Shown here: positions 10,418 through 12,037 of the stretch, one piece after another | How the letters are laid out: each line of letters starts with the position of its first letter | Position numbering within the stretch: the stretch's first letter is position 1 | Assembly (NCBI GenBank): GCA_963769055.1 | Contig: CAVYKF010000006.1 | Span: forward strand, 224,212 to 248,211 | Direction of reading: 5' to 3' | DNA from: an uncultured Alphaproteobacteria bacterium | Lineage (GTDB): Bacteria > Pseudomonadota > Alphaproteobacteria > Micropepsales > Micropepsaceae | Length of the DNA: 24,000 nucleotides | Translations under genes and position numbers: made by a program | Notes under the pieces: model-generated | The model's database searches: none | Told to the model about the DNA's origin: nothing | Seen by the model: the letters and a program-made list of their open reading frames with translations, nothing else

Positions 10418-12037
10418 TCAATCGGCCAGCGGATAACAGGCGCTGAGTTGCTGATATTTCTTCCATTCGTCCCGCAGCAGACGCAGGGCCGCGGGGCGGT
10501 GACCCAGGGTCCGGTTGGCGGCGCCGATTGCGAACACCAGGTCCCATTGTTCGAACAGCGTGGCATAGGCTCGGAACAGGGAATTGCGATTGTCGTAGAT
10601 GCTGGTCGCCTCGGAAGCCGCGCCGTTCAACTCCAGGATCTTGAAATCCTCGCCGCGCCTTATGTCGTCATCGCAGGCGTAGCGCACATCATAGCGCCCG
10701 ATGAAGAAGCCCGGTATCTGCCGCGATATCTGGTCGATGCGGGCCTCCAGCTCGGCGCTCCACAAATGCATGCCGTCGCGGAAGATGCAGCCCTGGCAAT
10801 GATTGCCTGCTTCGACCAGTTTCAGGCGCTGGCCGGCCGCCAGCACCTTGTCCCGGATCGCGTGGTGACGCCTGAGATAGGTGCCGGCCATGATGGCAGC
10901 GCGCCGGTCGGCCCGGATCAGCTGTTCCAGCGTGTGCACGCCGTCACCCGACAGGACCGGAAAGATTTTCTCGGTGATGGCGAAAATGCGGCCCCGGTCT
11001 TCCTGCGGGAAACGATAATAGAAGATGCCCGCCTCGCAGGGACCGGCGGCATATTCCTGCAAGACCACGTCGCCGGAGACTTGGCTCAGATACTCGCGCG
11101 CGTCGTCCAAGGCGCGCACCAGCCTGAAACCGCTGCCGCGATGGGCGATATTGGGCTTCAGGACCACGGGCAGCGCAAGCCGATATTCCCGGCAGAGCGC
11201 CTCGAACTGCTCCATGCGCTCGGATGGGATCGTTTTCGTGATCAGCGCGGAGCGGGCCGTGAAATCCGGAGAAGTCCGGACCAGATCCTGAAGAATGGCG
11301 TGTTTGGATTCGCCGACGATGCCGCCGGTGAGCATTCCCGGATTGGCGATGGTGGGCAGATTGATGCCGCGATATTTGAGCCCCAGCCGGACATAGTTGA
11401 GCCCGATGGGGAGATAAAACAGCCGGGCCGGCCAGAATTCCCATTGCAGCCAGCGCTGCAGCGCGGGCGCTTGAACGAGGGCGCGAATCTTTTCCCGGTA
11501 CAGCAGCGACAGTCCGGCGAAGACCAGAATGACCGCCGCCGCGATGATAAGCGTGCTCCTTGCCGTTCCGTACCAGACTGCCGCCTCGCCCCCCGCGATG
11601 CGGACCAGCGCGAAGATCAACGGCACCCAAACCAGACCCATCAGCGCGGTCACCACCGCGAAGGACAGAAACGGGACCGCCAGCGTTCCGGCGATCAGAT
11701 AGGTGGGAAGGCGCAAACCCGGAACAAAGCGGGCGACCAGCAAGACCAGAAGGCCGCGCCTTTTCCACCAGGCTTCGCTGCGCGCCAGCCGATCCTCATT
11801 GACGCGCCGCTTGACCCAATCGCGTTTCAAAAACGGGCGTCCGAAATAACGGGCCAGGGCATAAAGCCCGAGATCGCCCAGCCATATCCCCAGAAAGCAC
11901 GCGGCCAGACCCCACGGCGTCGCCAGCAGACCCGCCGCCGTCATCGCGGCCCCGCCCAAGGTGGCCGCGTCTTCCGAAAAAAACGTCAGAAGGAACAGCG
12001 AGGCCGTCTTGGCCAGGGTCATGCTCATCGCGGTCAT
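10418..12037 (-). CDS. Fusion protein: N-terminal DedA/VTT (SNARE-associated) membrane domain + C-terminal ATP-grasp carboxylate-amine ligase domain
   Basis: 539 aa. The DedA-like region is FSEDAATLGGAAM..GDLGLYALARYFGRPFL..LVARFVPGLRLPTYLIAG, followed by an extra TM. ATP-grasp blocks are VVLKPNIAHRGSGFRLV, VVLQEYAAG, GNHCQGC and FKILELNGAASE. The ATG overlaps the upstream gene's stop in ATGA at 12034-12037. Confidence 0.8.
   Translation of the reverse strand: MTAMSMTLAKTASLFLLTFFSEDAATLGGAAMTAAGLLATPWGLAACFLGIWLGDLGLYALARYFGRPFLKRDWVKRRVNEDRLARSEAWWKRRGLLVLLVARFVPGLRLPTYLIAGTLAVPFLSFAVVTALMGLVWVPLIFALVRIAGGEAAVWYGTARSTLIIAAAVILVFAGLSLLYREKIRALVQAPALQRWLQWEFWPARLFYLPIGLNYVRLGLKYRGINLPTIANPGMLTGGIVGESKHAILQDLVRTSPDFTARSALITKTIPSERMEQFEALCREYRLALPVVLKPNIAHRGSGFRLVRALDDAREYLSQVSGDVVLQEYAAGPCEAGIFYYRFPQEDRGRIFAITEKIFPVLSGDGVHTLEQLIRADRRAAIMAGTYLRRHHAIRDKVLAAGQRLKLVEAGNHCQGCIFRDGMHLWSAELEARIDQISRQIPGFFIGRYDVRYACDDDIRRGEDFKILELNGAASEATSIYDNRNSLFRAYATLFEQWDLVFAIGAANRTLGHRPAALRLLRDEWKKYQQLSACYPLAD

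Follow-up and report, generated by a model that had tools for sequence, protein, structure and literature searches.

A widespread fusion of a DedA/VTT membrane domain with a putative ATP-grasp ligase and its genomic association with bacterial aminolipid genes

Introduction

MprF is an aminoacyl-phosphatidylglycerol synthase fused to a flippase, and its gene is often paired with a hydrolase gene. A polypeptide of comparable logic, a DedA/VTT membrane domain followed by a putative ATP-grasp ligase, is encoded on the minus strand at positions 10418-12037 of the stretch analysed here, a 24,000-nucleotide segment (the window) of contig CAVYKF010000006.1 from an uncultured alphaproteobacterium of the family Micropepsaceae (GenBank assembly GCA_963769055.1, positions 224,212 to 248,211). 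As in MprF, one polypeptide would unite a cytoplasmic enzyme for lipid head groups with a lipid-translocating membrane domain, a hydrolase travels along, and the likely outcome is a changed membrane surface charge or chemistry. The two proteins share no homology, however: the fusion has no match to the LPG_synthase or MprF-flippase models of Pfam and NCBIfam at E ≤ 0.1, it would use ATP by way of an acyl-phosphate where MprF uses aminoacyl-tRNA, its membrane domain is of the DedA/VTT type, and its proposed substrate is an N-acyl-amino-acid lipid, not phosphatidylglycerol.

Among ATP-grasp amino-acid ligases, CphA adds Asp to the C-terminus of its polymer, GshB and GshAB add Gly to gamma-Glu-Cys, and Ddl and RimK are likewise alpha-carboxylate ligases. 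The fusion has in common with the CphA G domain, GshAB, GshB, RimK and Ddl the nucleotide-binding Lys, the Gly-rich loop and the D...E-x-N metal ligands, and its segment AITEKIFPV..GDG.T.E.LI aligns with CphA1. It differs from these ligases in its low identity to them (13-18%) and in lacking their usual N-terminal substrate domain; it also lacks the M and N domains of CphA and is membrane-tethered through DedA. In common with the COG0586 DedA proteins (UptA, YqjA/YghB) it has acidic residues in its first hairpin, an RxxPGxR motif in its second and their final transmembrane (TM) helix. To judge from residue numbering, it appears to be without the extra N-terminal helix of YqjA, and it departs from UptA and other DedA proteins in bearing a catalytic extension of 350 amino acids (aa). 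In a published survey of domain fusions involving DedA, the partners listed are rhodanese, PAP2 and disulfide oxidoreductase domains, with no ATP-grasp among them (PMC10127716).

Two further described systems resemble the locus through its gene neighbourhood. Genes with the PF13444 domain (OlsB-like) and the PF01553 domain (PlsC-type), as found in the OlsB/OlsA, OlsF and GlsB/GlsA aminolipid pathways, share an operon with the family in many genomes. Once made, known aminolipids undergo hydroxylation, methylation or transamination as tailoring steps (PMC11631085), and none of the pathways found described in a literature search includes an ATP-grasp, DedA, TANGO2 or DinB protein. The gene downstream of the fusion belongs to the family of human TANGO2, comparable to the Cys N-terminal-nucleophile (Ntn) lipid amidases, and has Cys2 and the NRDE motif intact; where it departs from human TANGO2 is in its operon linkage, and occasional fusion, to a membrane ligase. 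The fusion thus belongs to the ATP-grasp superfamily and the DedA/VTT family and to no characterised family within either. The literature search returned nothing describing the fusion or linking DedA, ATP-grasp, TANGO2 or DinB proteins with aminolipids: DedA with ATP-grasp gave incidental co-mentions only, ornithine lipid with ATP-grasp only a review citing general ATP-grasp chemistry, and TANGO2 with ATP-grasp, TANGO2 with DinB and aminolipid with DedA gave nothing. The fixed operon with a TANGO2-like gene and the proximity to amino-acid-lipid synthesis genes in other phyla make an aminolipid role probable, and the family probably modifies membrane aminolipids through an undescribed pathway.

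Integrity and distribution of the fusion

The open reading frame (ORF) runs uninterrupted from an ATG start to a TGA stop and encodes 539 aa. Every motif quoted in the original prediction, which was made from this sequence alone, is present in its product: FSEDAATLGG (residues 20-29), GDLGLYALARYFGRPF (54-69), ARFVPGLRLPTYLIAG (102-117) and STLIIAAAVILVFAGLSLLY (161-180) in the DedA half, and VLKPNIAHRGSGF (292-304), LQEYAAG (326-332), GNHCQGC (411-417) and ILELNGAASE (467-476) in the ATP-grasp half. More than 3,000 relatives were recovered at E ≤ 0.001 among 8,000 candidates scored. The best 120, from Rhizomicrobium-like Alphaproteobacteria and Verrucomicrobiota, are nearly all 530-565 aa long, cover 97-100% of the query and contain no internal stops, and the junction between the VTT and ATP-grasp parts aligns without gaps among the homologues. 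When one genome per species was scanned with a narrow pattern, the fusion was identified in 254 species genomes, all of them metagenome-assembled genomes (MAGs).

In an error-prone MAG, the single ORF could in principle be a DedA gene and an ATP-grasp gene joined by an assembly or frameshift error, and other genes of the same assembly do look frameshifted, for example one with a glutathione-synthetase C-terminus joined to pirin (locus L087). Against this, the same 530-560-aa architecture with an ungapped junction recurs in thousands of independent assemblies from several phyla, and the junction residues 189-243 rank among the most conserved parts of the protein. Such an origin is close to inconceivable and was ruled out on these two grounds, the related genomes holding intact, full-length versions; the single-polypeptide fusion claimed in the original prediction is therefore genuine and not a product of assembly. 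The L087 ORF itself, at 4404-5492 of a locus on another contig (C15) of the same genome, has pirin domains behind the C-terminal ATP-grasp fragment of a glutathione synthetase, all in a single frame, which suggests an assembly frameshift or indel error there.

The range of architectures was surveyed with the ATP-grasp part alone against 1.84 billion proteins, which at E ≤ 0.001 retrieved 2,723 representatives of 50% identity clusters, with E below 1e-30 for 1,087 of them. A VTT domain is present in 109 of the best 150 representatives, comprising 73 with the plain VTT-ATP-grasp order, 34 with an N-terminal extension of 100 to more than 400 aa, and two with an N-terminal TANGO2 domain; the others include one with a DinB-like N-terminus and 31 with the ATP-grasp part only, some of which are fragments. 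The extension is an alpha/beta-hydrolase in the representatives scanned, and two proteins are ordered TANGO2-hydrolase-VTT-ATP-grasp. A search seeded with the hydrolase-fused form added approximately 4,000 members, mostly from Acidobacteriota (Blastocatellia) and Planctomycetota. The fusion had been regarded as unusual; it is instead the dominant architecture of a family of thousands, found in Rhizomicrobium-like Alphaproteobacteria, Verrucomicrobiota, Acidobacteriota, Planctomycetota and other phyla. Existing annotations describe its members as "VTT domain-containing protein" or "DedA family protein", the ATP-grasp half being hidden because Pfam fails to recognise it. In three Acidobacteriota genomes (G336, G401 and G496) the ATP-grasp part is apparently a separate protein of approximately 360-430 aa without VTT, which would represent a natural split version if a DedA gene adjoins.

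The ATP-grasp domain

Single-sequence comparisons leave the C-terminal half almost unrecognised. The Pfam RimK model scores 13 bits, below its cut-off of 21, the cyanophycin synthetase model TIGR02068 scores 17 bits against a cut-off of 850, and a search of the PDB with the fusion protein as a single sequence returned no matches. A profile of 18 sequences gave cyanophycin synthase as its best PDB match (E = 0.0025), and a profile of 99 homologues, with 37-93% identity to the query and including the hydrolase-fused subfamily, matched cyanophycin synthase (1.7e-5), GshAB (3e-5), CphA2 (3.4e-5), Ddl (5e-5) and a RimK-domain protein (0.004). A first AlphaFold model built from the 18 sequences had a mean predicted local distance difference test score (pLDDT) of 67, and Foldseek searches with it retrieved only ATP-grasp enzymes. 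The second, built from the 99-sequence alignment, reached a pLDDT of 90.8 and a predicted template modelling score (pTM) of 0.70; its best Foldseek matches were CphA1 (7wac, 7.5e-10), GshAB (3ln7, 2.7e-9) and CphA2, followed by many D-Ala-D-Ala ligases (Ddl, approximately 2e-7), and all of the 50 PDB matches listed are ATP-grasp enzymes. The C-terminal half accordingly has an ATP-grasp fold, and the assignment made in the original prediction is borne out by profile and structure comparison alike, with the core delimited in Table 1.

Sixteen positions of this half are among those invariant in the 99 sequences: K245, K294, R300, G301, G303, Q327, E335 and R342, followed by K357, H413, R448, D450, E469, L470, N471 and E476. 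K294 (in VLKP), the R300-G301-S-G303 segment and Q327 (in LQEY) correspond to the nucleotide-binding Lys, the Gly-rich loop and the hinge motif, and a HMMER alignment places K294 and the Gly loop on the KPxxGxxGxG segment of CphA1, VIKPLDGNHGRG. D450 (in GRYD) and E469-L470-N471 (ELN) sit on predicted strands 446-453 and 465-471 of the AlphaFold model, the two strands of the C-terminal subdomain that carry the metal ligands in ATP-grasp enzymes; D450, E469 and N471 presumably equate to D257, E270 and N272 of E. coli DdlB. The putative activity of this half is an ATP-dependent carboxylate-amine ligation through an acyl-phosphate.

The DedA/VTT domain, predicted topology and linker

The N-terminal half is recognised by the Pfam VTT_dom model (PF09335) at residues 32-143 (E = 6e-17, 62.7 bits against a cut-off of 33.9). 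NCBIfam DedA and UptA models align to residues 35-186 with scores far under their equivalog cut-offs; the UptA equivalog NF052604 scores 44.2 bits against 250, so that the fusion is not a member by score. In the alignment to the DedA model PRK10847, residues 52-186 of the query cover profile positions 83-214 of 219, and because this span includes residues 161-180, the helix there is the canonical C-terminal helix of DedA proteins. The original prediction had described it as an extra TM helix, an impression explained by the short Pfam VTT model, which stops before it.

D55, R103, P106, G107 and R109 are invariant in the 99 sequences, and S21, E22 and D23 are conserved in at least 90% of them. 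Its predicted elements are two hairpins of helix-break-helix form, the K/R-rich loop at residues 61-100, one long TM helix and, at 161-180, the final TM helix. The AlphaFold helices (3-17/22-34, 40-70, 81-102/109-118 and 123-179, with a pLDDT dip at 151-160) have pLDDT values of 82-96, and the helix pattern, hydropathy, charge and full-length DedA alignment fit two re-entrant hairpins and three TM helices, a membrane embedding predicted from these features.

Use of ATP requires that the ATP-grasp domain be placed in the cytoplasm, and the original prediction had proposed the topology as a check. By hydropathy and charge analysis, loop 61-100 carries 12 Lys/Arg residues, with REKIR forming a basic tail behind the last TM helix. 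In YqjA, cysteine scanning has located positions 99 and 117 in the cytoplasm, 180 in the periplasm and 217 in the cytoplasm (bioRxiv 10.1101/2021.10.18.464800). By the offset of the DedA model, loop 61-100 corresponds to YqjA positions 99/117, loop 148-160 to position 180 and the tail beyond residue 180 to position 217. Since the basic loop and tail match YqjA positions mapped to the cytoplasm, the ATP-grasp half is predicted to face the cytoplasm, by homology to YqjA and by the positive-inside rule.

Between the two domains lies a linker (residues 189-243) that contains QRWLQWEFWPARLFYLPIGLNY, with its WEFWP motif, and ANPGMLTGG. R195, W202, Y208, P210, L218, N232, P233 and G239 are invariant in the 99 sequences, and short helices at 191-197, 205-221, 227-230 and 236-239 are modelled with pLDDT values of 87-97. 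It stands where ATP-grasp enzymes usually have their pre-ATP-grasp N-terminal substrate domain, and may form a substrate entry at the membrane interface.

The DedA half also bears on a different function, in which a COG0586-like domain would flip undecaprenyl phosphate or a derivative and the ATP-grasp domain would attach an amino acid to a lipid-linked peptide or sugar acid at the cytoplasmic face. The models closest to the VTT half are those of UptA/DedA COG0586, and Ddl-type ATP-grasp enzymes act in the synthesis of cell-wall precursors. The acidic residues and Arg pair of DedA proteins, thought to bind protons and the phosphate of undecaprenyl phosphate (PMC10127716), are retained in the fusion as E22, D23, D55, R103 and R109. 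The low score to the UptA equivalog argues against this function, however, no peptidoglycan, O-antigen or glycosyltransferase genes recur beside the cassette in the loci compared, and the strong linkage to OlsB and PlsC genes described below would be left unexplained. We therefore give a role in polyprenyl-linked precursor synthesis little credence.

A conserved operon with DinB-like and TANGO2-like genes

The fusion gene is the middle member of a cassette of three genes (Table 1). Neighbours were counted with hidden Markov models built from four seed orthologues each and run on the ORFs of 85 loci: the DinB-like gene lies immediately upstream of the fusion on the same strand in 80, the TANGO2-like gene immediately downstream in 79, and in most of the exceptions the contig stops at the gene. 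In 55 loci, mainly outside the Alphaproteobacteria, the cassette is preceded by the gene for a DoxX membrane protein. The original prediction, correct as to the fusion itself, had viewed the gene in isolation and so missed the DinB-like and TANGO2-like partners, the hydrolase fusions and the link to aminolipids.

The TANGO2-like gene starts 3 nt past the fusion stop codon, with the junction reading gatTGAtccATGtgc. Its product scores 34 bits with the Pfam TANGO2 model (cut-off 22.6) and matches the C45 Ntn family at E = 3e-4, and its profile matches the solved human TANGO2 structures 8sv7 and 9bwa at 1.8e-6. In a 2026 structural study, human TANGO2 has been proposed to be a Cys2 Ntn hydrolase with catalytic Cys2, Asn25, Arg26 and Asp27 and a cavity suited to fatty-acid derivatives, and has been compared with bile-salt hydrolase, acid ceramidase and NAAA (PMC13044924). 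The residues proposed to be catalytic in the human protein are those kept in the bacterial partner, 76 of whose 77 orthologues have M1-C2 and N18-R19-D20-E21.

The DinB-like protein is matched weakly by the Pfam DinB_2 and DinB models (E approximately 0.01), and its closest named PDB relative is the DinB-like protein 3dka (E = 0.026). H45, H48, H52, H136, H139, H140, D68, R70, R72 and E129 are kept in at least 90% of its 78 orthologues. Its stop codon overlaps the fusion start codon as ATGA, from which the two genes are predicted to be translationally coupled.

Table 1. Coordinates of the fusion domains, cassette genes and neighbouring genes in the window
Feature	Coordinates	Strand	Evidence
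DedA/VTT membrane domain, residues 1-188	11474..12037	-	Pfam VTT_dom, NCBIfam DedA/UptA models, AlphaFold, conservation
Conserved short-helix linker, residues 189-243	11309..11473	-	Conservation in 99 sequences, AlphaFold
ATP-grasp ligase core (predicted), residues 244-539 and stop codon	10418..11308	-	Foldseek, PDB profile search, invariant residues
DinB-like four-helix metalloprotein gene, 179 aa, first in cassette	12034..12573	-	Weak Pfam, synteny, conserved His
ATGA stop/start overlap of DinB-like and fusion genes	12034..12037	-	Minus-strand sequence ...ggcATGAccgcg
TANGO2/NRDE-family gene, 250 aa, putative Cys Ntn amidase or acyltransferase	9662..10414	-	Pfam, profile, Cys2/NRDE
DipZ-like protein, 587 aa	6532..8295	-	
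Beta-propeller protein	8250..9674	+	
ORF of 116 aa	12875..13225	-	

A scan for promoters and terminators within and around the cassette gave nothing convincing. Just upstream of the DinB-like gene and on the same strand is the 116-aa ORF without a Pfam match, which has a hydrophobic N-terminus followed by a part rich in His, Trp, Asp, Arg and Tyr; the promoter region of the cassette would fall in the gap between them, at 12574-12874. At the other end, the TANGO2-like gene converges with a gene for a beta-propeller protein resembling glucose/sorbosone dehydrogenases (NHL repeat, DUF7133), and the 3' ends of the two genes share 13 nt (9662-9674).

Linkage to aminolipid synthesis genes

In other phyla, the family lies near genes of N-acyl-amino-acid lipid synthesis. 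An OlsB-like ORF is found within 6 kb of the fusion in 9 of the approximately 80 closest loci, all of them outside the Alphaproteobacteria, where about 0.5 would be expected by chance. On a Limisphaerales chromosome (L048) the order on a single strand is DoxX-OlsB-DinB-fusion-TANGO2, and in another locus (L047) fusion-TANGO2-OlsB-PlsC, also on a single strand; in two genomes with a single PF13444 copy, it is that copy which adjoins the cassette. Four distant loci chosen arbitrarily all have OlsB in the same operon, three of them with PlsC as well: OlsB-PlsC-DinB-TANGO2-hydrolase/VTT/ATP-grasp (L088), OlsB-DinB-fusion (L089), OlsB-PlsC-DinB-fusion (L090) and OlsB-PlsC-VTT/ATP-grasp (L091). Depending on the lineage, OlsB stands upstream or downstream or is inserted, and this variability speaks for repeated selection of proximity.

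The association extends to whole genomes. Among 301 sampled genomes of Verrucomicrobiota, the phylum of L048, PF13444 is encoded by 36 of 39 carriers of the fusion versus 138 of 262 non-carriers (odds ratio 10.8, p = 5e-7), and among 201 sampled Acidobacteriota, the phylum of L078, by 24 of 25 carriers versus 17 of 176 non-carriers (odds ratio 224, p = 5e-19), with the fusion and PF13444 genes at most 5 kb apart in 18 of the 25 acidobacterial carriers. The genome of the window has one OlsB-type gene, on another contig (C15) and unlinked to the cassette, and all five further genomes tested from the Rhizomicrobium-like clade likewise have an OlsB-like gene unlinked to the cassette. The suggestion in the original prediction that the substrate or product is membrane-embedded gains independent support from this strong linkage to OlsB/PlsC genes, with the identity of the substrate deduced from context.

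A protein with a ferric-reductase-like TM domain and a Rieske 2Fe-2S domain adjoins the cassette and OlsB genes in several phyla (L089 4699-5736, L090 3799-4911, L081 619-1674 and 11 other loci), and the gene after it is often an unannotated one encoding approximately 250-280 aa. It may be a lipid oxygenase or a redox partner in the same pathway.

The same linkage would apply equally if the ATP-grasp domain activated a free fatty acid as an acyl-phosphate and N-acylated an amino acid independently of acyl carrier protein, with DedA delivering or removing the lipid. Precedent exists in ATP-grasp enzymes that can make acyl-phosphates from fatty acids, as in Legionella acyl-histidine synthesis (review, PMC11631085). 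The hydrolase fusions and the tie of TANGO2 to fatty-acyl compounds would suit an acyl-handling system, the fatty acid perhaps being released by the alpha/beta-hydrolase domain of the relatives. However, CphA, GshAB and Ddl, the closest relatives, are amino-acid and peptide carboxylate ligases and not fatty-acid-activating ATP-grasp enzymes, and because the genomes nearly always encode an OlsB-type N-acyltransferase too, in the proportions given above, a second N-acylating enzyme would be redundant. Direct fatty-acid activation is thus considered improbable.

Proposed function

We hold with about even confidence that the fusion would be an ATP-dependent ligase acting on an aminolipid, with lipid handling mediated by its DedA domain; confidence in any particular product of the enzyme is much less. 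N-acyl-amino-acid lipids carry a free alpha-carboxylate on the N-acylated amino acid, which is chemically a peptide C-terminus, and because the closest ATP-grasp relatives activate alpha-carboxylates and add amines, extension or amidation of the head group is the simplest reading. The identity of the lipid substrate, the partner supplying the carboxylate and the roles of the TANGO2, DinB and DedA proteins in the following scheme are inferred.

The fusion would be a bitopic enzyme, with a lipid-binding or lipid-flipping DedA/VTT domain in the inner membrane and an ATP-grasp amidoligase held at the cytoplasmic face by the conserved interfacial linker. In the hairpins, the invariant R103 and R109, opposite E22, D23 and D55, would bind the anionic head group of an N-acyl-amino-acid lipid, an aminolipid of the ornithine-lipid type made by OlsB/OlsA-like enzymes. 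The ATP-grasp domain would phosphorylate the free alpha-carboxylate of this aminolipid, and an incoming amino acid or amine would attack the acyl-phosphate to give a head-group-extended lipid of dipeptide or amidated type, which the DedA domain would then translocate or pass on. The co-translated TANGO2-like Cys-Ntn enzyme may hydrolyse or transfer the lipid amide for turnover or editing, and the DinB-like metalloprotein, DoxX and, in other phyla, the alpha/beta-hydrolase may be accessory components.

Several points weigh against this scheme. The DedA signature of acidic residues and two Arg is the one tied to undecaprenyl-phosphate flippases (PMC10127716), the roles of the DinB-like and DoxX proteins are not accounted for, and the redox and stress genes that recur beside the cassette in close relatives are left unexplained. 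The window, and with it the whole Rhizomicrobium-like clade, has the cassette away from OlsB (approximately 470 kb in G506). In addition, the co-occurrence statistics ignore phylogeny, and 3 of the 39 verrucomicrobial and 1 of the 25 acidobacterial carriers, in genomes that are incomplete, have no PF13444 match.

Redox genes around the cassette

Genes neighbouring the cassette in the loci include those for ECF sigma factors (27), DUF1223 proteins (21), DsbD-thioredoxin proteins (15), Rieske/ferric-reductase proteins (14) and FMN reductases (11). In the window, a DipZ-like protein with a DsbD-type TM domain, a thioredoxin/redoxin domain and Thioredoxin_10 is encoded approximately 1.4 kb downstream of the cassette. 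Within the Rhizomicrobium-like clade, 15 loci have this gene close to the cassette, a recurrence that is probably clade synteny, though it fits the redox flavour of the neighbourhood.

Such neighbours recall a pathway of thiol or redox metabolism, in which a GshB-like ATP-grasp enzyme would make a gamma-glutamyl-type peptide or a low-molecular-weight thiol conjugate, the DinB-like protein would be a thiol S-transferase, the TANGO2-like protein a glutamine-amidotransferase-like amidase as in ergothioneine synthesis, and DedA and DoxX would export or anchor the product. GshAB is within the two best structural and profile matches, and DinB-fold proteins include thiol transferases. The neighbours in close relatives, DoxX in its 55 loci, the ECF sigma, DUF1223 and FMN reductase genes, MsrA/MsrB and the DsbD-thioredoxin gene downstream of the cassette in the window, are consistent with it. 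The redox neighbours differ by clade, however, with DsbD-thioredoxin confined to the Rhizomicrobium group as clade-level synteny, the genome-wide association is with PF13444, and a permanent membrane tether together with hydrolase and TANGO2 fusions would be unexpected in a soluble thiol pathway. Because the PF13444 association is far stronger and is held across phyla, a thiol or redox function is reduced to a minor and quite improbable rival of aminolipid modification.

Significance

The family constitutes a large hidden class of enzyme-carrying DedA proteins, with thousands of sequences in at least five phyla, carried mostly by soil and freshwater Verrucomicrobiota, Acidobacteriota, Planctomycetota and Rhizomicrobium-like Alphaproteobacteria. 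For research on DedA proteins, where undecaprenyl phosphate is the main known substrate, the fused enzyme offers a built-in clue to the lipid substrate, and the cassette points to a so far undescribed step in the tailoring or transport of bacterial aminolipids. A bacterial TANGO2 homologue with Cys2 and NRDE intact, in a defined operon near N-acyl-amino-acid lipid genes, also provides a tractable system for the cleavage targets of TANGO2-type Ntn enzymes. It is possible, though on the unlikely side, that the cassette defines an undescribed lipid class of aminolipids that acquire one or several amino acids on the head group by non-ribosomal extension, are flipped by DedA, and are trimmed or recycled by a TANGO2-type amidase. 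If so, extension would work in the manner of cyanophycin synthetase or RimK on the "C-terminus" of a lipid, and these lipids would be the first natural substrate class for the TANGO2 family, of relevance to human TANGO2 deficiency disorder.

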